DNA of 58,806 nt, the filler included, from Dirinaria sp. TL-2023a (Eukaryota): assembly GCA_051941275.1 (NCBI GenBank). It is 8 parts of 8 records of this genome, joined end to end, with 100 filler letters (N's around TTAATTAATTAA, not from the genome) between each part and the next. Parts side by side here need not be neighbours in the genome. Positions count along the whole stretch, not along the records: positions 7,385 to 14,665 come from JAVEBF010001331.1; 7 more parts are not named here. One strand, written 5' to 3'. A program made the position numbers and the translations under genes. The notes beneath the pieces were generated by a model. That model had not been told where the DNA came from. It ran no database searches and saw only the letters and a list, made by a program, of their open reading frames with translations. Below, in pieces: positions 1 through 44,213 of the stretch (its first letter is position 1; each line of letters starts with the position of its first letter).

Positions 1-1397
1 ACTTTAAGCAGCGGGCGGTTACGGCGGAACATGCCCGGATCCCGATTGGCCGATCCCATCTCACTCTTATAGACTTGCTGCATCTCGACTCTCGATCGAC
101 TTGCTAATCTTGCCGTCACTACTTTCCTTAGCCTGAAAAACATCCCCTGTTAGGCTGTTGAACACCCCACTAAGCCGAAGCGGCCGAGGAGAGCTACTTG
201 AGGCAAACGGTCAAACCGCCATTCCGTCGTTTCAGTCACTGCCTAAACTCTGCCACAGCCACACGGGAGTCCAGTAAAGCAAGAGCTAAGGTACCTTGGG
301 TAGTCGCGACTACCTTATGTACATCTACCTTGGGAGTGAGTAATCGGAAACGTTACGCTAAAGCAACGTGATCGTGGTCATTGGCACTGGGGATGCCGGT
401 ATGGACCCTGGAAGCCTCCGCCACACGGCTTTCGGAAGTGGTGGTCGTGGATGGTTGGATGAGAAAACTGTATCTCACACATGATCTATCCGAACCGCGG
501 ATCTACATAAGTCTGTGCACCTCGCCATAAATAAAGTACATGATTGTACATGATTTCCATCAGCCACACACGCACTCGCCCCCTCCGCCATTTCCTGGAC
601 CGGGTAAGCTTTCTAGATTGCATGCTGGAACAAGGATAGTTCCCGATCCTCTCTGTCGCTCGACACTCCAGTTGGCCAATGCAGCCGGGTCGACCAGCTC
701 CTACGGTCTTTATAACCCTGGGCCAAGTCGCCTTATTCACTTTTTGAATTACCCTAATGGCCAAGAGATGAACCAATAAGGCAACCATCGCGCTAATCGT
801 CTCGATCCGTACTCTTTCCGAGTGCTACCAGGATCAAAATCGAAGAAATACACGTCTCTTCTGATGGATAGCAGCGTATTTTGTCAAATCATGTTATTTC
901 CGATGAGTGCTACCGACCCTGATTCCAATGACTAGCCAGGCATTGAGGCCGATAATCGCAAGCTGCCGTGCCAGACAACCTGTTATTAACCAGTCCTTCC
1001 GGATTGCGGTCCGCCATGGTGCTCAGCTCTTATAGTCTAGCAATCCTCCAATAGCTCTGGAATGGTTTGTCCAAACCATGGCCGGCAGATCATCCGACAT
1101 GGATCTTTATTCGTCCAGAGGCATAGTACTCGAGTACTCTCTACTGCGGCTATCTTACATGAAGCAATGACAATATATGCCGTTCAGAAATACCGGTCTC
1201 GGTGATAACACTCCAACGTATACATTGTCAACGGCGGGAAACTAGATGGGAGCTGTTGTACCCATTTTTGGTCATACATAGACTGGAATAGAGATATCTC
1301 ATGTTAGCCGATAAAGCGGAGGAGCATGTACGATTTGCAAAAGATGAGATCGACTTATATTTATGAAGATTATGGCTTTCTATGGGCAGCAATCTTT

Positions 1398-2639
1398 TTA
1401 CAGCTCACTATGGTCAGATTTACCTGCGTGACTGATGGAGTTCCTTTTATCCTCCAATACCTCTGGACGGGCCGAAAAGTACCGAGCTACAAAAGCAGCA
1501 CCCACCGCTCCAACGTAAGGAGGATTGATACTATCGCGAATTTCGCTTTCTTGTCTAGGAAACGCTTCAATGAGAGCGGTGTGTATCTGTGCCACAGACG
1601 GCTGTGATACTTCACTACTCACAACGATCGCTCTTAAGAATTCAAAATGGCTAAGATGAGGGTCTTTTGGGATGAAAACAGAGGATTGTGCGAATTTCGC
1701 GAGGGCGTGGCGAATCTCAACAAAAGCGTTCTTCCCATCGTCCCACAACGACACACGTCTATGATGCTCAGGAAAAGCACCGTATTCCGTGATGGGAGCT
1801 ACCTTGAGCTCTAAAAAGTTTGATTGATAATCCACATAAACGATTTGGTGAGGCCCATCATCGATGTTACAGCCCTTCTGGGTCAAGCGAAATGCTTGGC
1901 AAGAATTGAGGCCGTAAGCTAAACGGGCTGCGTTCAGCCACCGAATGACCTGCCCTGGTTGATGGATTGGCAACCCAATTTCTTCGACTGCGTCGAAAAC
2001 GCTTCCGATTAATGTAACGTTGGAGTAATTTGGGATGCGTAGCACGTTGATGAGTATTTCTTCGCCAAGAGCACTCGAGGCTGCATATTGGACGCTGTGA
2101 AAGGCTTTAACCAAAATCTGCTTCGTTTGGTCTTTATCGTGCGCTTCTGGAGGTGCTGGATTCAGTGCGCCTTTTTCGTCTTCGATCATCCCCTTCCCCC
2201 CTGGCTGCCTGATCGGGGTTGCTGTCGGAAAGGAATATGGCACTAAACGCTGGCTATCACAGGACTTAAACTCACTTTCGCTTCCCTTCATTGGCAAGTA
2301 CGTTAGCCATGTATGATTGGCACGCAGGATTTCCGAGCACTCTGGCAACGAGGACTGGCTGAGATTTGTTGTGCTCGGTGAAGCGTGCTACCGTATTAAG
2401 GTTGCGCATTAGTTCCATATCTCGTAGGATTGTCTCTGGCTCCTACATATGTCGTTGCCCAGTTTCAATGCCCAGCGCTGTCATTCCGTCAAGTCAGCCT
2501 TATAATGTTATTTGTTATTACCCTCTTGTATTGGAATAACTCACGGAAATTTCCGTGCGGTATTCTGATCTCGTTGGCTTGCGGTGGCCAAAGGGCACAT
2601 AGATCCAATCCAGATGCACGTGTGCAGTGATAGCATCAT
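1398..2639 (-). CDS. Divergent Hsp70/actin-fold NBD-only protein, possibly secreted or ER-resident (multi-exon; 5' splicing unresolved)
   Basis: The last exon (within ORF 1398-2348) carries degenerate Hsp70 motifs in order: NAARLAYGL (cf. TAAALAYGL), IVYVDY (phosphate-2 position), AIVVSSE (cf. IVLVGGS), SINPPYVGAVGAA (cf. INPDEAVAYGAA). The protein ends in HSEL. Upstream segments read LGIETGQRH (phosphate-1-like) and a hydrophobic MMLSLHTCIWIGSMCPLATA from ATG 2639. I could not join all of these in frame. Confidence 0.55.
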
Positions 2640-3269
2640 CGACCAACAGAAGGACTGCATCCTATCTCAGGAAAACCTGATATGAATTATGGAGAAAGAA
2701 AACAAAGGGGTCATGTCTCGTGGACGAATTCATGTACAACTCGATTCCTACCTTATGACATTTTCAGACCGCAAAGTGTCATAGGATGCGCCGAGCTTTG
2801 CCTTTCATTAACATGCGGCGAGGCGGCTGACAGCGTTTCAGAAACGACAACATGATATTGGATGGCGGTGGCTTGGTTGCTGCTCCTTATCTCCATTCTT
2901 CTTTGACGCTCCTTAATACTCGCAACTGCCTATCAGATCAGCGAGGCCACAATGATAAGAACACAGCGCCTGGTGTCTCCTGAATCATTGCATTGATCTG
3001 ACATGATTGGCGCATCTTTAAGCGCTGCACGGCGAGGGCGTGCGGCGTAGTGCTGATAGTTTGATTCCTTCTAGAAATTCTAAAATGGCTTGATGCGGTG
3101 GAAGGAAATGATGCGTATGTGCCGCCTGCATTCTCGGGTGGCCATGTTCTATATGCCTGAACTACTCCCACAGGATTTCAAACTATGTGTACGGCATGCA
3201 TCGTTTCCCAGCCCTTTTACCTTTTTCTAGGGTCCAATCAAGGACAAACTTGGTGCACGCATTAACACA

Positions 3270-4653
3270 ATGCCTCTCATGAATCTAGCTGCTTTCCATG
3301 CGCTCCTTGCTTTGTCATTGACTTTCGCCCTTGTGAAACCGCTGTCCATGGAAGAACCCCTATCAGGTAGAGAGAACCTTGAATCAATCAGACAGCAATG
3401 GAGAGGCATCTATTGGGACGCTGCGAAGATAAAATGCGAACCAGCTGACTTCGAAATCCTTGCTGAAGCAACGCGCATGGCGGTTGTGATAACTAATTAC
3501 CAGACCGACATGGCCAATGAGCCCTTTTATAACACTCCATGGCATCGCTTCTTTGTTGATGACAATGCGTTCAGTAATTCAGGTGTGAAAGGCACTTGGC
3601 ATGGCGTAAGTCTTTCGAGCATTCATCGTACCGTCATACTGAAGTCATATTAGACTGGGAAAAGCCTACATATTTTCTCAGGCATGATGAGTGAGTCTGA
3701 CTAGCATCATGTGACCCAACGTTCTTTGCTGCTGATAGCAATGCAGATGTCTTCGAGCAAGTGAAGCCGTTTCCGATATGGGGTAAAAAGAACAGGATGG
3801 GTCAATGGGTCTGCGAAAGACAAATGTCCTACAGGTGCAAGGAGCATGGTCTTTTCAGCAAATGAGCCCACTCACCAAATATGTACGACCGATGGAGCGG
3901 ACCAACAACACATACTACAGAACCGTCGCTTGCCCATGATCAAGGCTGGACATTTACATTTTGCCCGAAGTTCTTCTCTGATGGACGATACAGATATATC
4001 AACCGCATAACCGGTGGTCCTAAACTTGGTCCCTCGGCAATTTCCAACGCCAATAATTACGAAGGAGTTATTATACACGAGTGAGTTCACAATGATATTA
4101 GCACAGGTTTCTATGACCACATCGTCGACGTAAGCGGAGACTGGCAATGTAGCCCAAAGAGCGTACAAAAATTCTATTGGAATACCGCAATCTATGGGCG
4201 TGCAAATGGACTGATATCGGATCCAAATACGTGAACACCAAGACGGCGTGGAATGCTGACAGTTACGCCTAGTTCTACATCTATAATTGGCTCAACCGAT
4301 ACTGGCGCTGGGCCACCGACGGCGCTCAGCCGATCAAGCGCTCCCTGCTTCCTGAACGACAGATCGTCCCTGCCAAGGTTGCAGTGGATGATAAAAACAC
4401 GGTAACGAACGAAAATGACATTAACGCCTCCAACGCTCCTCATTCTACAAAATGCGGTGACCCAGGCCGGCCTTGGACAGATGTTCTCCAGCTGTTTGAG
4501 TGTAGCCGCATGGGCGAAGGTTACAATACATACATTAGCGATATGGCAAAAGAATTTTATGAAAGGATGTGTGGAGATAGTCTTGCGTGTCCTCCTTGGG
4601 TATGGCGTAGGTGCCTTCAGGAGGGAAACCTTGATTATGTTCACGGGTTTTAG
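3270..4653 (+). pseudogene. Secreted M35/deuterolysin-like (aspzincin) zinc metalloprotease pseudogene
   Basis: Signal peptide at 3270 and GT-AG introns from ~3606. Motifs FCPKFF, IIHE*VH (HExxH at 4076-4090, TGA at 4082-4084), AIYG and NADSYA* (4252-4272, TAG). There is another in-frame TGA at 3863-3865 and a frameshift between the HExxH and NADSY blocks. Confidence 0.75.
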
Positions 4654-5312: not shown

Positions 5313-6317
5313 CTTTGGGTCTGATCTCGCGGGAGATCTTCAAATAGTGGCGCTGATCGCACTCCTCGCGTTTGCCTCCATGGGTATTAAACCGTAGGTA
5401 TTGGATTGCTCGACCCCGGAGAACCCCATGCATAACCCAAAGCGTCCAAGTTCGCGATAAGAGCTGCTGATACTGGATCTACGAAACTGAGTGCGAATAT
5501 GGAATCGGTTGCCGGCGGTTCGCACACTCTCAGTTCCGGTAACGCTTCAATCCCAATTGTTCGACGAGTACACTAATGATTCCTCATCTCTTTGGATTTC
5601 GAGAAATCTCAAACTATTGAGCGGACGCACCGACTGCGCTTTGACATCTGATGGCGCACGCATGGACTAGGACTCTTTCAGTTCCTTTCTCTCTACAGAG
5701 ACTTTGAGAAGGGCACTAGCTGATAGTGCCCGCCTCATTTCCATTAATCCCAAAGTCTATTAGTAAGGGCCCTTTGGCCTGCACCACCTGGTATTCTCTG
5801 ATACGTACATTAGCTTGCATGACCAGATATGAATACTTCGAGGATCGAGTGTCATCAACAATCAGCGTACTTTACAAATTAGAAAATACAGGGAATTTCA
5901 TGCGCTGGAACCTCGTTCTACTATTTGAAACTATCCTCTTGCAACTAGTCATCGGCATGACTCAGAATCAGCGATAAACAGATACAGGGAAATTTTCGAG
6001 ACGATTGATTTATATGAGTTTTCCGATTTCAAAATCGCCAACTTCGTAAAAGTTGGACGACGTAAAATTAGACAAGAGGTCGCAGCACTCGGGGTGCGAG
6101 AACAAAGAGCACAAAAAGAGACCTTCTCACTTCATTGACAAATTGTGTAGGGTCAAGATCATGCACAGCGTCCCCAGTAGATTTGAAAAGAAAAAGTTGC
6201 GAGCAAGGTCCAGATCACTAGTCAGCCTCTCTAGCTCAGGATCTTTGGGTCCGATCTCCCGAGAGATCTCCGTTTAGTAGCGCTGATCGCGCTGATCGCG
6301 CTCCTGGCGTTTGCCTC
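5313..6317. repeat. Two diverged ~65-75 bp direct repeats within degraded, unidentified coding-like sequence
   Basis: ctttgggtctgatctcgcgggagatct...gcgctgatcgcactcctcgcgtttgcctc (~5313-5377) vs ctttgggtccgatctcccgagagatct...gcgctgatcgcgctcctggcgtttgcctc (~6243-6317). Confidence 0.6.
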
Positions 6318-7284
6318 GGTATCTCATGATGATCGATTTTACCTACTCAGGTGAATTTGGGGATAATCGATCTAAAAAGATCATGATGAGAATTTCCAAG
6401 TCCCTGATACCGGGTCCGAACTTACTTGCTGCTTGCAGTTCTCGGATCCAAGGATGCTTGTCATCAACATCAATTCCTAAGGGAGGAAATGATCTTCGAT
6501 CTGCCTTTCTAACACCTTACAACAGATAACACGGAGCAACTACTCTACGTCGTACACTAGCGACTGTGCTTGCTCATCAAAGATTGAAGCTATGCGAAAC
6601 TCAATAGCACAGACCGCTATCTCTATACGTTTTCCTTCCCTCGTCGCTTTCTAACAGTGTGCTCTCGATTTTCCCCAAGTTTTGAAATCTTATTTCGCTT
6701 CCTACCATGGAAAAATTCATCTCACGACAAATACCACTGTAGAGAGTGATGGTTTAAACCCGAGCCCGTCGGTGGCATTTATCAGGACATAATAGACGGC
6801 TAGGCGTTTGACATATTCTCTCTATTCCAGCTTTCCTTTTTGAAGACGCAAGGCTCAAGAACACCACTCAAAAAGCGCTCTCTCTCGTATCGTACATAGG
6901 TGTATAGTAGGCATCATGCCCACCTAGCATCCCTTAGCAAAAGGAAGCCCCGGACACCGCCACCTCCCCCATTATTTGAATACCACGTATTCGGCAGGCC
7001 CAACAGACTTGTATGTTACCAAAACCGTACAGGTTCTGCTCTGATAATAGCGTTGGAAAAACCGCATAAAAATTCATCTTTCTGCTTCTTCCCCTTCCTT
7101 TTGGCCCCTCCTCCTTCCACCCCAACTTAACCTATTAGTAGCAAATCCAAGACACTTTAACGTACAATACGTTCTGTCCTAGCAAAACCCGAGATTCGAT
7201 AGCTTTTTTAATCTTTTCGCTCTCAGAGGAAGGAGAGATATGAAGCGCGGTTTATGGGAGGGGTTGGGAGAAGGGGAGGGAAGG

Positions 7285-7384
7285 NNNNNNNNNNNNNNNN
7301 NNNNNNNNNNNNNNNNNNNNNNNNNNNNTTAATTAATTAANNNNNNNNNNNNNNNNNNNNNNNNNNNNNNNNNNNNNNNNNNNN
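7285..7384. other. Artificial contig spacer (44N-TTAATTAATTAA-44N); identical spacers at 14666-14765, 22039-22138, 29411-29510, 36763-36862, 44114-44213, 51464-51563
   Basis: Seven identical 100-bp spacers whose palindromic core puts TAA in all six frames. The intervening contigs decrease monotonically in length. Confidence 0.98.
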
Positions 7385-7644
7385 CTCGAAATTTTCGAAA
7401 CGAAAGCACGAACTGATTCACTTCTCGAGAACTCTCAAAAGATTCAATATGAGCGTCAGCATCAAATTAAATGAAAACGAGATGAAAATCAAGTTCGACA
7501 TCAGAGTGTTTGAAGTGCAGCTGAACTCAAAACTGCGATGAAGATCACATCTGCGTGAGATTGAGACGAAACTCGTCGTGAGATACAAAGTCACACAGAT
7601 AATTATCGACTTCACATGAGGTTCGACAATGGCAGCAAGCAAGC
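7385..7644 (+). mobile_element. Hypermutated Tad1-like LINE fragment (RT C-terminal region)
   Basis: Translates as KHELIHFSRTLKRFNMSVSIKL...DIRVFEVQLNSKLR*RSHLREIE...FT*GS, matching the fungal LINE pattern KYELIHF...IRVLGVQLDSKLRWGPH...STWG with Gly/Trp/Pro mutated. Confidence 0.8.
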
Positions 7645-7940
7645 TGTCATGATACTTTGACCCTTACGGCCTAGTGACTTATTACGTGAGATGGGTGGAA
7701 GCTTTCCCAAGGTTCTCTGGGGTCAGTAGAACCCAAGCGGATACTCGAAAACTTCTAGATGGTTTGATGTCATCGCTCTATAAGCGCTGCGTAGGCTTCA
7801 GTACAATATATCCGCAATACTGCCAAGTGATTGCGAGGTCGTATAGAATAAAGAGGCCATTCCCATCCCGAGGACTTGAGTTCCTCAGTAATTAGTCTTG
7901 ATAATCATAGACTTCTTGTTTCTCATACTGTTGCACATTG
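7645..7940 (+). repeat. Putative 5' LTR (3' boundary uncertain)
   Basis: Begins with TG at the LINE junction and contains TATAAG (~7780) and AATAAA (~7847). A candidate ...CA end lies near 7937. There is no second copy to confirm the boundaries. Confidence 0.45.
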
Positions 7941-8038
7941 CCACATAACCTAGCTAGTACTTGATTTCCATAAGGAACTTCTTACTAGCATAACAATTCT
8001 AATTACTCTCCTCCTAAGGGTGGTGATCCGTATACAGT

Positions 8039-9361
8039 ATGGTAGAAACAACCCGACAAGGACGTGTCGCGTCGCGGTCTGCAAGTGTGCGTGATTTGAG
8101 CGAGCAGCTAGGCGAGAATCAGCAACATGAAGATGTTCTAGGCGAGGTGATAAATACATCGCATGAAGATGCACCACCCCGCGACCCTGCCTCTAATGGT
8201 CGATCCCCTGCCACCTTGACGGCTTTGGACGCACAATTGGCACAAGTCATACGCGAACGCGATGAGCTTCGGACGAAGAAGATGGAACTTCAAAGGATCC
8301 AGGTAGAAATTAAATCTCTAAAACAAGCCGCGACAAATCTGCAAGCCGCTGTTGACACGACGTCGGGCCGAGGTGAAGGCGACGACGTTGAGGTCGTCCC
8401 CGAATCCGAAGTTGGGGCGAGAATTGCCCGAGGGATAAAACGTACCCACGATGATGCTTATGTGACCACGGCCCGATGTATAAAACCAAAGGATTTGGAA
8501 TTGTACAAGGGCAAGAGCATCAAGGAATTTACGAATTGGGCCGACAGCGCAGAGACTGCGTTTCGTTTATCCCCTGCTTATTTTCCCACCAGGCAAGATA
8601 AGGTGTTGTGGACCATGCAGTTTTTGGATGGCGAACCTCGTGATCTTTGGTATCGCTATGAAAAAGAACACTCCGATGCGTTAGATAGCTGGGAGTTCTT
8701 TAAAACCTTTCTTTTAAATCTGGTTGAGGACCCTGTCAACCGAAATTTGCATTATATACAATCGTATAATGATGCAAAGCAGGGTGCTAATCAAACCGCT
8801 CAGAGCTTCGATTCTTATTTGAAAGGATTAGAAGCACATATCCCGGAACCGACCCAGGAACAGTTGTGTTCGAATTACTTTGCGAAATTGCGACCGGAAT
8901 TAAGGACCAGTATTGGGAATTATGAAGTAATTCCTGATACTCGAGCAAGGATGGTCGCTTTGGCCGCCCGGCTAGAACGGAATAATCATCCTAAGATTGG
9001 AACGTCGTTCAATCGCAAGGAGAGAGACGACTCCTCACGAGGTTCTAACCAGGGCCAGTCAAAATTTAGGTCGTCCGGCAAAGGCAAAGAAAAGAGGGGT
9101 CAGGGTTCTGAGAATGGTTCTGGCGGGAGACAGTCGAATAAGTGGCAAAAGACCACTTCTTCCGATTTCAGGGGCTCGGGTGCTAGTCGGCATTCCAATG
9201 TGGAATGTTACGAATGCCATAAGAGAGGGCATATAGCACCTAATTGCCCGGAGAGAAAAAATCCCAACAAAACACCTGTGGGTTCCGTGGAAACGACAAA
9301 AAACGACAAGGCCGTGTCGAAGAGTCGCCGACGAAACGACGGCCCGAAGTCGACTCGATGA
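8039..9361 (+). CDS. gag: Retrotransposon Gag (capsid-like domain plus CCHC zinc knuckle)
   Basis: 440-aa ORF with a coiled-coil N-terminus, a retrotransposon-gag-like core (QDKVLWTMQFLDGEPRDLW) and CYECHKRGHIAPNC. Confidence 0.92.
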   Translation: MVETTRQGRVASRSASVRDLSEQLGENQQHEDVLGEVINTSHEDAPPRDPASNGRSPATLTALDAQLAQVIRERDELRTKKMELQRIQVEIKSLKQAATNLQAAVDTTSGRGEGDDVEVVPESEVGARIARGIKRTHDDAYVTTARCIKPKDLELYKGKSIKEFTNWADSAETAFRLSPAYFPTRQDKVLWTMQFLDGEPRDLWYRYEKEHSDALDSWEFFKTFLLNLVEDPVNRNLHYIQSYNDAKQGANQTAQSFDSYLKGLEAHIPEPTQEQLCSNYFAKLRPELRTSIGNYEVIPDTRARMVALAARLERNNHPKIGTSFNRKERDDSSRGSNQGQSKFRSSGKGKEKRGQGSENGSGGRQSNKWQKTTSSDFRGSGASRHSNVECYECHKRGHIAPNCPERKNPNKTPVGSVETTKNDKAVSKSRRRNDGPKSTR

Positions 9362-12300
9362 AAGCTCCGACCCAAACGGGTGAAGTGCTTCTGAAGGAAG
9401 ATGTTATCTTCACTGAAGTTACTTTTGATACAGGAGCTGAAATCAACGTTGTAAGCCAGCATTTCGCTTTGGAGCATAATCTGACGGAGGTGAACGTTGA
9501 ACTTCCCCAACCAAAATGGATGGATGGCGACAATACGCATTGTTATGGCGCCTATTCGGTTCATTATCGGCTCACCGATGACTGGGGAGTGACTCGTGAT
9601 AGTGAGAGAATTTTCTATGCACTAAACAAGGAGGGTCCTCCATTAGTATTAGGAAGACCAGGTCTTCATGCAGAAGGCATCAAAATTGATAATGGAAACC
9701 TTGTTTGGCGTTTTGGTATTAATCGAAACGCTTTTGAAGTCCAGACCCCGGAGCAATTTGCAATGTCATTGCAAGCGCAGGATTATGTTTATGCCCTTCT
9801 AATTGTTGATGTGGCCCAGGAGAAACCCCGTGTTGGTGCTGTTCGAAATGATAGCGAAAGCGCAACGTCTGCTCTCAGTACAGTGTTATCCGACTTTGCG
9901 GATGTATTCTCGGAGCAGGAGGCTGGAAGATTACCCGAACACAAGGCTACTGATCATGCCATTGAAACTGAGGGTCCTCCGCCTCATGGTCCTCTCTACA
10001 ATCTGTCGACCAACGAGTTGGCAGCGCTGAGAAGCTATTTAGACGACGGGTTGGCGAAAGGATGGATTCGACACTCTACAAGTCCAGCTGGGGCTCCAAT
10101 CCTCTTTGTGCCTAAGAAGGATGGTGGATTGCGCCTATGCGTGGACTATAGAGGTTTAAATAAAGTCACCATCAAAAATCGTCACCCTCTTCCTTTGATC
10201 ACTGAAACTCTGGATCGCCTCTGCGGGTCTAAATGTTTTTCTAAGATTGACCTCAGAGATGCTTACCATCGAATTCGAATTAGGAGAGGCGACGAGTGGA
10301 AAACGGCTTTTCGTACACGTTACGGTCACTTTGAGTATTTGGTTATGCCATTTGGTTTGGCCAATGCCCCGGCAACCTTTCAATCCTATATCAATAAGGC
10401 TTTAGCCGGGCTAGTGGATCGTTTCTGTGTTGTATATCTGGATGATATTCTTATATTTTCTGAATCCCGCGAGCAGAACGTTCTGCACGTTCGTGAGATC
10501 CTGTCCAGATTGCGTCAATTCCAACTCTTCGCGAAACTTTCAAAATGTCAGTTTTTCACTACTAAAGTTGAATTTCTTGGATTTATTATTTCAATCGATG
10601 GTATAGCGATGGATCCGAGTCGGGTAACAATGATCAAGGAGTGGCCCGTCCCTAAAAGCTTTAGAGATGTCCAAGTTTTCCTAGGCTTTGCAAATTTTTA
10701 TCGAAGGTTCATACATGAATACAGCCGTATTGCTTCTCCCTTAACAGGATTACTTCAAGGTAGTCAGAGTGGAGTTAAGCATGAACCATTCGAATGGCCA
10801 GTCGAGGCAGAACGAGCGTTCATACACTTGCGCGACGCCTTTACGACAGCCCCTATCCTTCTCCACTTCGACCCTAATTTAAAGAGCCGTATGGAGACGG
10901 ATTCTTCTAATTTTGCTCTTGCTGGAATTCTTTCTCAATTGCAGGAATCCGGCAGATGGCATCCTATTGCCTTTTGGTCTCGGAAAATGACGCCCGCAGA
11001 GCGTAGATACGAGACCTATGATCAAGAATTATTAGCCATCGTCATGGCTTTTAAACAATGGAGACATTACGTCGAGGGTAGTGTTTTTCCAGTTGAGGTC
11101 TTAACAGATCATAATAATCTTCGCGGATTTATGAATGTTAAAGAACTGAACCCTCGACAAGCCCGTTGGGCAATGAAGTTGGCGTCTTATGACTTTGTTA
11201 TACAGCATCGATCGAGGAAAACCAATTCTGCAGATGCGCCGTCTAGGCGATCGGACTATGAAGAGTCCAAGGCAGAGATGAAACCTCTGCTGCCAACTTT
11301 ACAGAGCAAGCTCTCTATGCTAGGGATGCTGCTAGAGAAGGGGACGCCCTTGCTGCGGAAGGCATGCTTGAATGCATCTCCGCAATTGAGACTTGGGAAA
11401 TCTCAATCAAGAGCCGCAACTCTTGAAAGTAGTAGCAGTGAAATGCCTACTTATACCCACTGCGGCAGCGTGTTGCTAAGTAAGTCCGCTGGAACTATTG
11501 GTTGCAAACAATTCGTTCCACGCGTTGTAGTTGCAGAGTTAACTACACGCGAAACGGTATATGACCCTACGTCAAACTCAATTGTTGAAGTGATTAAGGC
11601 GCTGCAACAAGACGATTCTCTTGTCCAGCGCTATAAAAATCCCAACAGTCGACAAAGACGAAGTGGCCACACCGGAAAGGCGCAAGGTTGGCGCTTTGAC
11701 AGCGATGATGTCTTGCGACATAAGGAAGCTGTCTATGTCCCAAACGAGTCTTCTATTAGAGAAGAACTCCTAAAGAGGTATCATGATGATCCTCTGGCGG
11801 GGCATTTTGGGGTGCAGAAGACTTACGAGTTACTTGGTCGTAAATTCTTCTGGCACGGTATGATTAATGATGTTAAGGCATATGTAAATACGTGTGACAT
11901 ATGCCAGCACATTAAGGTCCCTCGGCATAAACCTTATGGCGAATTAACATCATTACCGCAACCCAAAGGTCCATGGCAGGAAATCACGATGGATTTCATC
12001 ACCGGCTTACCGCCAAGTAAGCACCATGGACAAATTTATGATGCGTGTCTTGTGGTCGTGGACAGATATACGAAAATGTCAATGTATATCCCCACAACAA
12101 AGAAGGTCACTGCAGTACAACTAGCGGAAATCTTTTGGGAGAAAATTATTCCTCGTTATGGAACTCCCAAAGGTATTGTTTCAGACCGTGGCTCTGTATT
12201 TACGAGTGCGTTTTGGTCAGAAATATGCTATTATTCGAATATTAAACGCCGACTCAGCACTGCTTTTCATCCTCAAACGGACGGTCAAACCGAGCGGCAA

Positions 12301-13185
12301 AATCAGACTCTGGAACATTACTTACGAGCTTTTTGTAATGACCGACAAAGGGATTGGGCCATGCTATTGCCTCTGGCCGAATTTTCCTATAATAACAGTA
12401 TTCATGCTTCGCTGGGTTGTAGCCCTTTCTTTGCTATGTACGGGTACAATCCTCAAATCCAATATGACGCCGAGGACGACGCCAAAGAAGGAGAGGTACC
12501 CGCAGCAAAAGAAAGAATTAAAAGCATTCAAGAAATTCGCGAAGCACTGTCTACTCGTTGGGCTAACGTTGTGAAGACGCAAGTCAAATATTATAATCAG
12601 CATCATGAACCTCGACAATTTAAGGTTGGAGACTTGGTGAAACTTTCTACCAAGAATCTTAAATTGAAAAATCCAAGTAAGAAATTGTCGCCCAAATTTG
12701 CAGGGCCTTTTAGAATAAAGGAGCCTTTGGGAACGCAAGCCTACAAACTTCATTTACCTGCTGTCTATAGCCGATTACATCCTGTTTTCCATGTTTCCTA
12801 TCTGGAGCCATATCATCGTCGAGAAGGTGATGACTCTATTCCCGAATTAACTCTACCTGAATTGGTAGACGACGAGGAAGAGTATGAAGTGGAACAGATA
12901 TTGGGGAGGCAACAACGTGGGCAGGAAATCTGGTATAAGGTTAAATGGAAAGGCTGGCCCAAAGAATATGACGAGTGGATCCCTGAATCAAATATGGGAA
13001 ATACATCGGACCTAATCCGAATATACGAAGGGTCTGCGAACACTAAACGCCGACGAATCGCCAAAAGAAAGTCGGATGGTTTCTCTTCTTTCGAAAAGCA
13101 AAGCGCGTCAGCAACAAGACGTCCTAAAGAAAGAAGAGCGACAAGTGCACTGCGACGTAGCACTAGGAATAAACCAGTGAGATGA
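9244..13185 (+). CDS. pol: Pol polyprotein (protease, RT, RNase H, integrase, chromodomain), in the -1 frame relative to gag
   Basis: Motifs: FDTGAEINVVS (protease); LRLCVDYRGLN, MPFGLANAPATFQ, YLDDIL (RT); ETDSSNFALAGILSQ, TDHNNL (RNase H); HDDPLAGH...CDIC, MDFITGLP, SDRG, DGQTERQNQ (integrase); EYEVEQIL...YKVKWKGWPKEYDEW (chromodomain). Uninterrupted 1313 codons. Confidence 0.97.
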   Translation: MPGEKKSQQNTCGFRGNDKKRQGRVEESPTKRRPEVDSMKAPTQTGEVLLKEDVIFTEVTFDTGAEINVVSQHFALEHNLTEVNVELPQPKWMDGDNTHCYGAYSVHYRLTDDWGVTRDSERIFYALNKEGPPLVLGRPGLHAEGIKIDNGNLVWRFGINRNAFEVQTPEQFAMSLQAQDYVYALLIVDVAQEKPRVGAVRNDSESATSALSTVLSDFADVFSEQEAGRLPEHKATDHAIETEGPPPHGPLYNLSTNELAALRSYLDDGLAKGWIRHSTSPAGAPILFVPKKDGGLRLCVDYRGLNKVTIKNRHPLPLITETLDRLCGSKCFSKIDLRDAYHRIRIRRGDEWKTAFRTRYGHFEYLVMPFGLANAPATFQSYINKALAGLVDRFCVVYLDDILIFSESREQNVLHVREILSRLRQFQLFAKLSKCQFFTTKVEFLGFIISIDGIAMDPSRVTMIKEWPVPKSFRDVQVFLGFANFYRRFIHEYSRIASPLTGLLQGSQSGVKHEPFEWPVEAERAFIHLRDAFTTAPILLHFDPNLKSRMETDSSNFALAGILSQLQESGRWHPIAFWSRKMTPAERRYETYDQELLAIVMAFKQWRHYVEGSVFPVEVLTDHNNLRGFMNVKELNPRQARWAMKLASYDFVIQHRSRKTNSADAPSRRSDYEESKAEMKPLLPTLQSKLSMLGMLLEKGTPLLRKACLNASPQLRLGKSQSRAATLESSSSEMPTYTHCGSVLLSKSAGTIGCKQFVPRVVVAELTTRETVYDPTSNSIVEVIKALQQDDSLVQRYKNPNSRQRRSGHTGKAQGWRFDSDDVLRHKEAVYVPNESSIREELLKRYHDDPLAGHFGVQKTYELLGRKFFWHGMINDVKAYVNTCDICQHIKVPRHKPYGELTSLPQPKGPWQEITMDFITGLPPSKHHGQIYDACLVVVDRYTKMSMYIPTTKKVTAVQLAEIFWEKIIPRYGTPKGIVSDRGSVFTSAFWSEICYYSNIKRRLSTAFHPQTDGQTERQNQTLEHYLRAFCNDRQRDWAMLLPLAEFSYNNSIHASLGCSPFFAMYGYNPQIQYDAEDDAKEGEVPAAKERIKSIQEIREALSTRWANVVKTQVKYYNQHHEPRQFKVGDLVKLSTKNLKLKNPSKKLSPKFAGPFRIKEPLGTQAYKLHLPAVYSRLHPVFHVSYLEPYHRREGDDSIPELTLPELVDDEEEYEVEQILGRQQRGQEIWYKVKWKGWPKEYDEWIPESNMGNTSDLIRIYEGSANTKRRRIAKRKSDGFSSFEKQSASATRRPKERRATSALRRSTRNKPVR
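9298..9356 (+). promoter_or_regulatory. -1 programmed ribosomal frameshift signal (slippery heptamer plus predicted pseudoknot)
   Basis: A_AAA_AAC at 9298-9304 is in the gag frame, followed by a 5-nt spacer. GGCCGT (9310-9315) pairs with ACGGCC (9339-9344), and loop GAGTCG (9322-9327) pairs with CGACTC (9351-9356). Confidence 0.8.
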
Positions 13186-13225
13186 TCATGGATTACCTAC
13201 TATCCGAACTACCCTTGCTAGGAGC

Positions 13226-14665
13226 CTAATTCTCGCCGGAATAATAAGGCGAGGTCGACTTGGTGGATTCCGAAGAGATATCAATAGTAGGAGAGCGTAC
13301 CTTTACCTTTTTAACCGGTACTTTGGTCCTCTTACGAGGAGGTATTTCCTCCTCGTCCTCGTCCTCTTTCTCTTCATCGCCCCGGTTCACATCGCTAGTC
13401 CCATTAGCTCCCTCGTCACCAATTCCATTATCATCATCCTGGCTATCCTCATCAATATCATCTGACCCATCTTCGCCATCCCCGCGATTTCCATCAGCGG
13501 CACGCTGGCGATCTAATTTCGCCTTTATAGCTGCACGCTTTATTGAAGCCCGTAGGCTTAGCTTCGTAGGGGTTAATGGATAATCCGGGCGTTTCAGGTC
13601 GTCTTCAGTTAAAAGAGACTAAACAAAACGTTCCGATAAACAGTATTAGCGACGAAGCGGCGACGGGAAGTAGCCGAAGGGAAGACAACACTTACGTTGA
13701 TCCTACTAATAGTGGCAACCCCCTCTACCGCGTTTGCTACACGACGAATCTCCTCCAGCAACAATAACCCTATGTCCAGTGTAGTCTTTGGCTGAGACTT
13801 TGGGGCTTTTACCTTGTGACCTTTTTTCGACTCAGAGATCATGAAAAGGGTCAATTCCTTGTTTGTAAGGAGCGATAGCTCCTTTAGCTCTTCGTATTCG
13901 CCTCTCTTGGTAAACTTCGGGAGCTCCTCAGTCTCTTCAAAATACCCCAACTTACGCATCCCTGCCAATAAAACATTGGCTTTGTCAAAGAATTCTACAG
14001 GTACCTATGGCCCAAGAGTCAGTATGTCGCAAACATGTCGCATAGCTGGCGAGCAATGGGGTAGTCCTTACCTTCTCGCAAGGTTTATTCAAGCTGCTAC
14101 ATAGAGAGCAACGCTTGCCTGATACATCACAGGGCGTGGGCAAATCGGGAATACGTTTCAAGCATTTGATACAGATAGGCTCGTCCAGTGTAAGCCATGG
14201 CTTATATGGCTGTTTAGCCGTCTGTTTAGCGCCAAGTTAGCGACAACTTGTCGAAGGGGCTGAGACTTCTTACATCCATCGGGGTATCTGCGATTTCTTG
14301 ACCCTGGTCACCTTCACCTAATCCTCCGGTCATCTGTGGGATAGTTGAAGAGGGATCTGCTCTATCCTGGCGACCATTCGTCTCCTGGGTGCCTCTGCCC
14401 TGTCCAACTGATGTCTTTGGAGTAGCTATGGTATCCTTGGATACTGATTTTGTAGGAGCCGAAGAGGCGAGGGTACGACGATTGCTAGGAGTCGGGGTAG
14501 ACTTGGTTGAGTCTTCTGGAAGTTGTTCTTTGGACACTTTGTCCCTAGTACGTCCTTCCTTCAGCGCAGCATGAAGCTGCTCCCCAAAGGTAAGAACCGG
14601 TCCTGAATTCTCTCCGGCGCCGTCATGTATCTCATCGTTCGCTGCTCCATCTCCTTTACCACCTG
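13226..14665 (-). CDS. Spliced antisense gene: Cys6 zinc-cluster-like, acidic, NLS-bearing protein (5' end off contig)
   Basis: Exons >14665-14274, 14221-14072, 14004-13696 and 13618-13226 join in frame through three phase-0 GT-AG introns (52, 67, 77 nt) with CTAAC/CTGAC/CTAAT branch points. Exon 2 encodes CIKCLKRIPDLPTPCDVSGKRCSLCSSLNKPC. Exon 4 has a D/E-rich tract and PPRKRTKV. Confidence 0.82.
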
Positions 14666-15556
14666 NNNNNNNNNNNNNNNNNNNNNNNNNNNNNNNNNNN
14701 NNNNNNNNNTTAATTAATTAANNNNNNNNNNNNNNNNNNNNNNNNNNNNNNNNNNNNNNNNNNNNTGGGCCTTTGGTGCAGACCCAGCGTTAGATTAACT
14801 CTCTCCATAGTTTAAATACGATTTCGAAAAGGTCCCCCGTGCACTCATGAATGATGAAATCAGGATCTCAGACGATTAGAACGCTAGAAATGAAGCTAGA
14901 GAGTGGGGATGGTCAATGATAAGAGCCTAGCGGCGTCATATCGAAGTAGAATCATCATATGAGAATAACTTAACGATGCCGTGCCTAATCATGGCTTACT
15001 AGTGAGGCTCGCCCGGGAAGGGAGTAACCGTGGGTGGCCGACTAGAGGTCGATCTTGGTAGATGGCACATCCTACCTAGAAGTCAACCTTAGATGGCTTA
15101 AATCGACATGTCTGAAGTTGGCTTCTACTGGACGAACTCACCCGTGCCTATCGCAAAGTCCCTGCGTAAGCCAACCACCAACCGACGCGCCCTCTTTACC
15201 CACGTTCAGTAAAACAAAGCTCCCATTGGCGCCTAGGAAAGGCAGAATGTCCATGAACGCCCGGTTTGTGTGCAGCCCACCTACAGGGTAGCGCAGTTGG
15301 TCGATATTGTCGATATTGGAAGCGATTCGCACAACCCCATTGCTGCACTGGATCAGCCCAGTCTTCCCATCATTCAAAGTCCTGGGCAATGCAAAGCCAT
15401 TGATCCATGGAGGGCTCCCTCAAAGTTTCAGCAATAGAGCTGGCGATAGACGCGTAGGATCCAAAAATCGTCTCGACAGCCACGTTCACAGAACTTTCCG
15501 ATTAGAGATGGTTTCAGATCACTGTTGTAAGATGGGAGCCACTGGCGTCACACCAC

Positions 15557-22038: not shown

Positions 22039-22384
22039 NNNNNNNNNNNNNNNNNNNNNNNNNNNNNNNNNNNNNNNNNNNNTTAATTAATTAANNNNNN
22101 NNNNNNNNNNNNNNNNNNNNNNNNNNNNNNNNNNNNNNTAGATCTCCTCTACGAAATAGCTAACGTCTATACATTCAAGGCAAAAAGCTCATAGAAGTGT
22201 CATACTCAATGGTACGGTCACATTAGGCAATGTTTTATTACTCGAGGATACGGCCTACTGGGGAATGTTCGGGGACTGAAGATGCGCTTATTTTACGATA
22301 TGGTTCCCTAGGAGCTATCCTTGACTGTTACTTTATAGACATGCTACGTTGGACTACCTGAGCCCGATCAACAAGCTGCGAGCA

Positions 22385-28870: not shown

Positions 28871-29510
28871 TTGATGAGGTTCTGATATTCCTCGACTGGA
28901 TAACTAGCTTTCTTTTGAAAAAAAAAAAAAAAAAAAAAAAAAAACCCCCATTCTCCGCATTAAACTACCTTAGCCTTCAAACAAACGTAGCCATCAACAA
29001 ACCCTACCTTATCCTAAACTTCATAGCCTTTTACACGAGCATATGTTTAGCATAGATGACTTTTAGTGTCATGCCGTTTATGATATACCTCTTCCCCCTG
29101 TATGCAGGAGGTATATTATAAATTGCACTATCTACGCCACGTCACCTTGCAAAATATCCTACCCTCCCTGCTGCTCACCACCTCATCGCCGTCATCCCGA
29201 TCTATCTGTCTATCTATCTAATCTCACCGTCGCACCTCGTTGTCGCGATCAATACGATAAACCTCTTCAAGTGCCATACGCTGAAAGCATACATTACCTT
29301 AACGAGTTGATTCTAGACCCACCTTGCTTCATTGCCTCTCAGTAGCGCGGCCATCAGCGCAATAGTATGTTTGTGCTTCCATCGACGCTTCATCAGAGCT
29401 AGGATCGATGNNNNNNNNNNNNNNNNNNNNNNNNNNNNNNNNNNNNNNNNNNNNTTAATTAATTAANNNNNNNNNNNNNNNNNNNNNNNNNNNNNNNNNN
29501 NNNNNNNNNN

Positions 29511-36738: not shown

Positions 36739-36902
36739 CCTCCACTTCATAATCGCCCTTCCNNNNNNNNNNNNNNNNNNNNNNNNNNNNNNNNNNNNNN
36801 NNNNNNTTAATTAATTAANNNNNNNNNNNNNNNNNNNNNNNNNNNNNNNNNNNNNNNNNNNNCTATCCCACCCTTTCCCCACCCCATGATGAATTAATAC
36901 AT

Positions 36903-43347: not shown

Positions 43348-44213
43348 GGAATTTAACAAATTTTGATAATCTACCAGAAGAGTTTCGTGTGGATTTCATG
43401 GACTCATCCGCTGCAGCGCTACTAATCGGGGACATGATGAAGAAGGGTCTTTGAAAAGGACACGCGAAGCCTGGAAAACATCTATCATAAATCCAAAAAT
43501 GACTACTGGCCAATGCTTCCGCAGCATGGCCACAGCCATTACGCTTTCGGCGCCGATTTTTTAGCTGTTTCTCCTGAGCATCTACTCCCTCCCCTTCCTC
43601 TATCAATGACGTCGATGCTGTTCATCCCGGCATCCGTCCTCCATGTGATGTTATACTGCACTATAACAAATCCTGCTTAAGTTCGAATACCAGAAGTACC
43701 AGGATAGCTCCCAAAGCGTATCAACTATAAACCGGAGCTTGTCTGCCGCTCCCCATAAGGCCCCCGCCTGTATACCACTTGCAGTATTTGCATTCTGTTT
43801 AATTAGCTAGTATCGAGCCCATCTCACGAATTATAAAAATTCTCATGATACGCAAGAATGACTTTGAAACGAAAAAAGGAGAGGGCCTAGATATTTTATT
43901 CTTGGCGGGATCAATGATTCCTAAAGGTACCCTTGACAAAAAGCAGCAATAAATAGGTATTAAATCCCTTTAAGCATAAATATTATTAGATAAGGTGACT
44001 CGATACTTTTTTACTGAAAAAATCCTACGTAGATAAAAGGCGCCCATCACACCACCAAAAAAACAGAAGAAAAGAAAGAAAAAGAAAGAAAAGTGCTCTA
44101 AAATGTTGTACTGNNNNNNNNNNNNNNNNNNNNNNNNNNNNNNNNNNNNNNNNNNNNTTAATTAATTAANNNNNNNNNNNNNNNNNNNNNNNNNNNNNNN
44201 NNNNNNNNNNNNN

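Follow-up and report, generated by a model that had tools for sequence, protein, structure and literature searches.

Does the spliced gene that lies antisense to a Ty3/Gypsy retrotransposon of Dirinaria sp. TL-2023a belong to the element, and what kind of protein does it encode? The gene was found in a 58,806-nt stretch of assembly GCA_051941275.1 (the window), which consisted of eight contigs of about 7.25–7.28 kb each, separated by seven artificial linkers of 100 nt. Dirinaria is a genus of the Lecanoromycetes, and the source organism is a lichen-forming fungus. The contig with the antisense gene (JAVEBF010001331.1) occupied positions 7385–14665, and the DNA past 14665 was unrelated; because the window was made of joined contigs, features were not readable across the linker joints. 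Accessory genes of long terminal repeat (LTR) retrotransposons are rare and almost wholly uncharacterised, and brtn of the Boty elements is the one fungal precedent. The four exons described here very probably form a real protein-coding gene that is borne by the element, and the gene is most likely a new member of the antisense accessory genes of the brtn type in fungal chromoviruses, and may represent their wider family.

Antisense gene of the Dirinaria chromovirus

The host element was an intact Ty3/Gypsy chromovirus (Metaviridae). Its gag and pol open reading frames (ORFs) were both uninterrupted, and pol showed the chromovirus domains in order and above the Pfam cutoffs: RVT_1 (E-value 1.2e-37), RT_RNaseH (9.1e-35), Integrase_H2C2 (1.7e-21), rve (8.4e-10) and Chromo (3.6e-11).

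Past the end of pol, a convergent gene terminated on the opposite strand. The initial annotation had described it as a gene of at least four exons joined by three canonical phase-0 introns and ending 40 bp past the pol stop; the exons, the junctions, the stop codon and the 40-bp gap (pol end 13185, antisense stop 13226–13228) were all found again (Table 1). The branch sites of the three introns were of the CTAAC, CTGAC and CTAAT type, which are fungal motifs. The spliced product was identical to a database protein of 373 aa (P0001), named 'MAG: hypothetical protein Q9191_006920, partial [Dirinaria sp. TL-2023a]', and tblastn placed the same three junctions. Every protein feature that had been listed was present in P0001: the pattern C-x2-C-x10-C-x6-C-x2-C-x6-C, then EKVPVEF (EK/VPVEF at the exon junction), the helical segment LLLLEEIRRVANAVE, the acidic tract and PPRKRTKV.

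Hidden Markov models (HMMs) built from seven relatives, with the window left out, matched the exons for the Cys module (E 1.4e-6) and for the helical domain (E 1.5e-5), and these two exons were the sole significant matches among the 1,810 ORFs of the window. A chance chain of ORFs was ruled out by these leave-one-out HMMs.

Since the antisense gene ran off its contig at 14665, neither its 5' end nor a possible 3' LTR lay within the window. The sole candidate start codon on the contig in the frame of exon 1 was ATG 14333–14331 (MTGGLGEG...), from which the product would have 303 aa; if the whole open frame were coding, it would exceed 413 aa. The database coding sequence of P0001, marked partial, began at 14543, though the frame was open on to the contig end. 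The annotation may presuppose another intron acceptor near 14546, and the gene may thus exceed four exons.

Table 1. Coordinates of the antisense gene, its host element and other features; positions refer to the window, except for the four loci of the L002 family.
Feature	Position	Strand	Description
Exon 1 (5' exon), cut by the contig end	14665–14274	−	Frame open to 14663; 130 codons without a stop
Intron 1	14273–14222	−	52 nt, GTAAGA...CAG, phase 0; similar site in the L002 family, 20 codons before the first Cys versus 16 here
Exon 2 (Cys6 exon)	14221–14072	−	50 aa; C-x2-C-x10-C-x6-C-x2-C-x6-C at 14173–14078
Intron 2	14071–14005	−	67 nt, GTAAGG...TAG, phase 0; exactly two codons past the last Cys
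Exon 3 (helical-domain exon)	14004–13696	−	103 aa; leave-one-out HMM, helices in the AlphaFold2 model
Intron 3	13695–13619	−	77 nt, GTAAGT...TAG, phase 0; intron at the homologous site in L002, L003, L006, L024 and L025
Exon 4 (last exon)	13618–13226	−	130 aa and stop TAG (13228–13226); isoelectric point 4.5
Acidic tract of exon 4	about 13346–13495	−	
Basic stretch of exon 4	about 13319–13342	−	PPRKRTKVPVKKVK
TATA-like box/antisense ATG, L004	11470/11364		106 nt
TATA-like box/antisense ATG, L012	12347/12241		106 nt
TATA-like box/antisense ATG, L016	12377/12271		106 nt
TATA-like box/antisense ATG, L017	7716/7610		106 nt
pol ORF	9244–13185	+	1313 aa, uninterrupted; reverse transcriptase, RNase H, integrase, SH3_Tf2-1, chromodomain
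gag ORF	8027–9361	+	First ATG 8040, 444 aa open; CCHC zinc knuckle (zf-CCHC 15.1 bits, below threshold)
Candidate 5' LTR	7645–7940	+	Limits from the initial annotation; start TGTCATG plausible
Flank at the contig start, decayed LINE-like reverse transcriptase remnant	7385–7644	+	ORF fragments, e.g. ...KHELIHFSR..., with in-frame stops
Linkers joining the parts	7285–7384, 14666–14765, 22039–22138, 29411–29510, 36763–36862, 44114–44213, 51464–51563		44 N + TTAATTAATTAA + 44 N

Position of the gene in related elements

Relatives were sampled through the C-terminus of pol (window 11701–13182), independently of the antisense gene, which gave 35 metagenome loci with 36–58% identity. A tblastn search of these loci with P0001 gave weak matches to the Cys region, all of them antisense to pol and mostly 0.5–0.9 kb past the pol match. 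A regular expression for the Cys spacing, run over the window and all loci (342,749 bases, six frames), had 13 matches, of which 11 were at the post-pol place (10 loci and the window) and 2 elsewhere. With local HMMs for the Cys and/or the helical domain, the antisense gene was recovered on the opposite strand just past pol in 19 of the 35 loci (L001–L006, L009, L010, L012, L014, L016–L019, L022, L024, L025, L030 and L035). Twelve further loci were not judgeable, with 516 bp or less after pol; the gene was not found in the remaining four (L028, L031, L033 and L034), despite a flank of 1.4–4.2 kb. The same gene in the same place across related fungal elements therefore argues for a genuine accessory gene.

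Pairs of LTRs of 199–204 nt, about 6.4 kb apart and with 91–99% identity, were found in six loci of one family (L004, L012, L014, L016, L017 and L019). The polypurine tract (PPT) and the target-site duplications (TSDs) were inspected in five of these, the L014 pair being left out. In all five copies the LTRs had the form TGTTAGG...CCTAACA, the PPT AAGAAGGGGGGGGCAAT abutted the 3' LTR, and the antisense gene lay between the pol stop and the PPT. The 5-bp TSDs were perfect in four copies (GTCCT, AACTC, CTAGT and GTTAG) and had one mismatch in L004 (ATTGG/ATTGA; read by eye). Since the gene lay inside the LTR and TSD bounds in five copies, the element has carried it along in at least five retrotransposition events.

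The 7487-nt contig of L001 held gag-pol and the antisense gene, and its two ends overlapped by 155 nt (99% identity); it was a circularly assembled unit of the LTR element, and the gene therefore appeared split across the contig ends. The layout of L003 was consistent with a gene inside the element, with an undefined LTR start. The placement of the gene between pol and the 3' LTR, proposed from the Dirinaria sequence, thus held for the relatives, while in the window itself the contig ended first. Neither outcome named in the initial annotation as a refutation, a syntenic host gene or a 3' LTR right after pol, was borne out by the related copies.

Conserved introns and putative promoter

Intron positions were conserved in the relatives. 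A GT lay exactly two codons past the last Cys in all 10 sequences, and the next exon started with [VI]P. Good donors were present at this GT in nine of them, the exception being GTCCGC in L001. A second phase-0 intron, after the helical domain (..L[RY]xQ/S), was shared by the window and the five loci given for intron 3 in Table 1. The lineage of L001 and L022 had no second intron, and its ORF continued through a basic stretch (KKPPRKRTAG...) to the acidic tail. In L001 (331–283), the weak donor GTCCGC bounded a first intron that was 48 nt long and in frame. Introns may be in the course of being lost or retained in this lineage. Like Dirinaria, the L002 family had a further short 5' exon (MNRKR...EPS/GTAAGT), and the 36 residues before the first Cys, counted from ATG 14333 in Dirinaria, equalled those of the L002 family. 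The products of the relatives were about 190–230 aa long. Because introns on the antisense strand are not spliced out of the sense genomic RNA, they are copied with it and survive retrotransposition.

In the L002 family, the one sampled best, a conserved TATA-like box lay at a fixed distance of 106 nt upstream of the antisense ATG in the four of four copies with a recognisable ATG (Table 1). The box was internal to the element, with about 165 bp between it and the inner edge of the 3' LTR, and no such box was present on the Dirinaria contig. The location of the box suggests that the accessory gene has its own promoter. The initial annotation had the gene driven from the 3' end; because the box is within the element, an internal promoter is at least as likely as an LTR promoter.

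Architecture of the predicted product

Across nine Cys exons, which were 20–32% identical, only C17, C20, K22, C31, C38, C41 and C48 were invariant, and the spacing of the family was C-x2-C-x10-15-C-x6-9-C-x2-C-x6-C. Isoelectric points followed one layout in six lineages, with values of 8.8–10.5 for the Cys exon, 8.1–11.7 for the helical exon and 4.1–4.5 for the tail; the last exon of the relatives was acidic (4.1). The AlphaFold2 model, based on a 14-row alignment, was confident only in helices, at residues 143–158, 174–202, 215–245 and 262–286, the first three with a predicted local distance difference test (pLDDT) score of 70–89. For the homologue P0003, the model stored in the ESM Atlas had scores of 0.78 or less, and its structural matches were unrelated. 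A two-copy complex prediction with residues 91–250 of P0001 scored 0.01, which is no evidence either way. The predicted product is thus a basic six-cysteine module followed by a basic helical domain and an acidic tail, and the Cys6 module is probably zinc-binding.

In Gal4, the cluster is followed by a coiled coil and an acidic activation region. The product resembled Gal4-type Zn(II)2Cys6 factors (PF00172) in its six cysteines, in the exact C-x2-C-x6-C of the second half, in the basic residues (including the invariant Lys) after the first C-x2-C, and in the order of a helical region and an acidic C-terminus. It differed from them in the first loop, which is an invariant x6 in Gal4-type factors and x10-15 here; in having no middle homology region; and in size, the product of the relatives having only about 190–230 aa. 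The first loop exceeded x6 in nine of nine sequences, so the canonical spacing C-x2-C-x6-C-x5-12-C-x2-C-x6-8-C did not apply, and this motif was absent from the window and the 35 loci.

Selection and descent

Ratios of nonsynonymous to synonymous substitution (dN/dS) were calculated by the Nei-Gojobori method in five comparisons of the antisense gene, each of 56–153 codons. The values were 0.41 (153 codons) and 0.15 (84 codons) for L001–L022, 0.41 (72 codons) for L009–L010, 0.22 (56 codons) for L002–L012 and 0.20 (76 codons) for L002–L004. For the integrase part of pol, dN/dS was 0.33 in L002–L012 and 0.25 in L002–L004. The constraint on the antisense gene (0.15–0.41), for which dN/dS had been suggested as a check, was thus comparable to that on pol (0.25–0.33), a conservation like that of the element itself. 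The pol values of two pairs were left unused: in L001–L022 the proportion of synonymous differences was 0.588 against 0.15–0.19 in the antisense gene, which points to a faulty frame in the codon alignment, and L009–L010 was saturated.

A quick maximum-likelihood tree of the pol C-terminus was constructed with 32 rows, after L020, L027, L030 and L035 had been dropped (fewer than 250 of 494 columns). All 18 carriers and six rows without data on the gene formed one group (Shimodaira-Hasegawa-like approximate likelihood ratio test 94), and all four gene-lacking loci with enough flank fell outside it. Lineage-specific features of the Cys loops tracked the pol clades. On the tree, L016 and L019 had a deviant amino-acid composition.

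Database searches and known antisense genes

Pfam analysis of the four exons and P0001 gave nothing above cutoff. A phmmer search with exon 3 against 1.84 billion representative proteins returned P0001 itself only, as did word-index searches with exon 2 (4 candidates) and P0001 (5,406 candidates). No relative of P0001 was found in the search against metagenome contigs, and none of the pol C-terminus in that against viral contigs. A protein search with profile A1 revealed five metagenome ORFs (P0002–P0006) among the best 8,000 candidates by shared words, a ranking in which acidic words may have displaced other candidates. Four of these were ORFs of lineages already in the locus set (P0002 of L001, P0003 of L025, P0004 of L022 and P0006 of L009). 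The protein-database searches with exon 2, P0001 and A1 yielded no named protein of Botrytis or Sclerotinia.

The closest known system is brtn, an antisense gene in the Boty-like retrotransposons of Botrytis cinerea, which passages of three papers credit to Zhao et al. 2011, Virology 417:248 (PMC8365987, PMC4227169, PMC7264820). According to the same passages, Boty-like elements carrying brtn have two identical LTRs (PMC4227169, PMC8365987, PMC7264820). According to a review passage, brtn sits between pol and the 3' LTR and occurs in Sclerotinia as well, and ORFs of this kind have no known function (PMC7264820). A transcript of Monilinia is described as resembling truncated Pol and BRTN in part of another paper (PMC5987419). 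As drawn from the descriptions in the cited passages, the likeness lies in an antisense gene between pol and the 3' LTR, the aORF-3R placement of additional ORFs (aORFs), which was found here as a gene convergent with pol in the window and inside LTR pairs in the relatives. The hosts differ, being Botrytis and Sclerotinia for brtn and a lichen-forming Lecanoromycete and environmental fungi here.

Antisense aORFs of plants (maize Grande, rice RIRE2, Silene Retand and Phaseolus PvRetro13) share the position, the orientation, the conservation within families and a suspected nuclear or regulatory role, as far as passages of the review describe them (PMC7264820). They belong to different element lineages, Retand being given as a non-chromovirus in a passage of PMC11963269. 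The Retand aORF has a hint of a transposase_28 domain, and the review passages mention no introns in plant aORFs (PMC7264820).

In the parts of the literature covered, the review states that there is as yet no complete analysis of the distribution of antisense aORFs (PMC7264820); brtn was not found in the supplements of PMC8365987, and the terms 'antisense' and 'additional ORF' were absent from 'LTR Retrotransposons in Fungi' (PMC3248453). Neither an architecture with a Cys6 module or an acidic tail nor a clade-wide survey of the gene was described in the literature searched, although subscription journals or supplements beyond this set may hold one. The initial annotation had called the gene part of a little-described accessory system of fungal chromoviruses. 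This is fair; 'undescribed' would not hold, given the precedent of brtn.

Possible role of the protein

Taken as a whole, the observations are best explained by a spliced antisense accessory gene between pol and the 3' LTR that is inherited within the clade and encodes an element-specific regulator, a reading we hold with moderate confidence. That the protein is a nuclear regulator of the transcription or chromatin of the element is plausible, if still somewhat doubtful.

Under this reading, the gene would be transcribed from the 3' part of an integrated copy, and the transcript would be spliced by the host. The protein would then enter the nucleus, the Dirinaria copy carrying an additional basic stretch that resembles a nuclear localisation signal (NLS). 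The Cys6/basic part may bind nucleic acid or chromatin, and through its acidic tail the protein may regulate, specifically for its own element, transcription or the state of the chromatin. Such a layout can be likened to a DNA-binding module joined to a helical domain and an acidic activation region. Its role would then resemble that of the regulators encoded antisense in retroviruses. HBZ of human T-cell leukaemia virus type 1 is an antisense, spliced, nuclear regulator with a bZIP domain, encoded near the retroviral 3' LTR. The two are alike as spliced antisense genes at the 3' end of a retroelement, possibly also in the way they work; HBZ differs in having no Cys6 module and in coming from a vertebrate retrovirus, and there is no homology. 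A comparison of antisense aORFs with antisense retroviral accessory genes is also made in a passage of the review (PMC7264820).

In its fullest form, the proposal would be that the clade encodes an antisense miniature transcription factor with a divergent binuclear zinc cluster, dimerising helices and an acidic activation tail. Translated from a spliced mRNA under an internal promoter, the factor would bind the LTR and activate the element or shield it from silencing. In all these details together the proposal is unlikely. If true, such a factor would be to retrotransposons what transactivators are to retroviruses, and it might connect mobile elements in evolution with the zinc-cluster factors of fungi.

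Several observations weigh against the favoured reading. No 3' LTR was visible in the window itself, where the contig stopped at 14665, and all relatives were metagenome contigs. Several copies were decayed, with Cys-to-Tyr changes and stops in L004, L014 and L016–L019, and the dN/dS values came from only 56–153 codons each. The NLS-like stretch was present only in Dirinaria and the L001/L022 lineage, and the binding of zinc and of DNA, like the nuclear localisation, is a prediction. The Pfam model Zn_clus reached 10.3 bits against a cutoff of 21 (E 0.81) in one of nine members and did not match the other eight. A profile search of the PDB sequences gave a best E of 0.18 or worse (LIM domain, Bud20) and no Gal4-type chain. 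The Cys region was poorly modelled by AlphaFold2 (pLDDT 52–79; 60.7 for the isolated Cys exon), and a Foldseek search with both models returned nothing at E 0.001 or less. Because of the long first loop, the sub-threshold Pfam score and the lack of a PDB match, membership in the Zn2Cys6 family is not supported. The likeness to the Zn(II)2Cys6 consensus put forward in the initial annotation is thus no more than a resemblance.

Other explanations were weighed against the same evidence. In Dirinaria the gene might instead be of host origin, or come from another mobile element, and simply lie beside an insertion truncated at its 3' end; this would fit a contig without a visible 3' LTR and an element lying in repeat-rich DNA beside a LINE-like remnant. 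The idea was rejected because five copies had the gene inside LTR and TSD bounds, because 19 of the 35 relatives, sampled independently of it, carried it at this site and in this orientation, and because it co-clustered with pol; nor was any free-standing homologue found among the 1.84 billion representative proteins or by the word-index searches, and this explanation is very improbable. A cofactor acting after transcription is rather unlikely; it might serve the nuclear import of the pre-integration complex (PIC) or its tethering to chromatin with the chromodomain integrase, or be an acidic, histone-binding anti-silencing factor. The integrase of the element does bear a chromodomain, and the acidic tail weakly resembled prothymosin and nucleolar proteins (Prothymosin E 0.0035, below cutoff), although such Pfam matches were sub-cutoff and compositional. 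An NLS-like stretch occurred in two lineages, whereas most lineages had no separate one. Nuclear or PIC roles of antisense aORFs are raised in passages of the review (PMC7264820).

It is also quite improbable that the gene is a self-limiting repressor of copy number, or that the antisense transcript itself matters, with double-stranded RNA (dsRNA) or small RNAs silencing or tuning the element and the protein being secondary. The gene is convergent with gag-pol, with 40 bp between the stops; a dsRNA-mediated role of antisense transcription is proposed in a passage of the review (PMC7264820), and the LTR elements of Botrytis are described as major sources of small RNAs (PMC8365987, in part). However, the passages of the latter paper say that the small RNAs do not derive from LTR regions and map none onto brtn (PMC8365987). 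The Cys and Lys residues were invariant, dN/dS was 0.15–0.41, and phase-0 introns and reading frames were kept across lineages of 20–32% identity; because of this constraint at the protein level, a purely RNA-based role is disfavoured.

The antisense gene is a stable, selected part of a whole chromovirus clade and not an oddity of Botrytis. It combines a conserved three-part architecture with an invariant Cys6-Lys signature and spliceosomal introns at fixed positions, and probably has an internal promoter of its own. What had been a vague 'extra ORF' can now be put as a testable hypothesis, namely that the element makes a nuclear regulator that binds zinc, and the profile alignments A1 and A2 can be used for screening fungal genomes. 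Genes of this sort are routinely overlooked or wrongly entered as host orphans, of which the Dirinaria database record is an example.

Other features of the contig and the related loci

The initial annotation had placed a 5' LTR upstream of gag (Table 1). Its start at TGTCATG is plausible; since the contig held no second copy, the limits, and in particular the end, could not be confirmed. No repeats longer than 31 nt were found within the contig 7385–14665. The flank upstream of the candidate LTR, up to the contig start, was occupied by a remnant that we take, from its motif, to be a reverse transcriptase of the long interspersed nuclear element (LINE) type. The intact chromovirus appears to be nested in older repeat DNA, with the LINE-like remnant directly upstream of the candidate 5' LTR.

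In L031, positions 1–4063 and 5678–9725 formed a 4-kb direct repeat with 99.6% identity, which started about 120 bp past the pol stop. This suggests tandem or LTR-sharing copies in a chromovirus lineage without the antisense gene. In the older copies of the L002 family (LTR identity 91–94%; L016, L017, L018, L019, L014 and L004), many Cys-to-Tyr and similar G-to-A/C-to-T changes and stops were present in both the antisense gene and pol, and this decay looks like that caused by repeat-induced point mutation.

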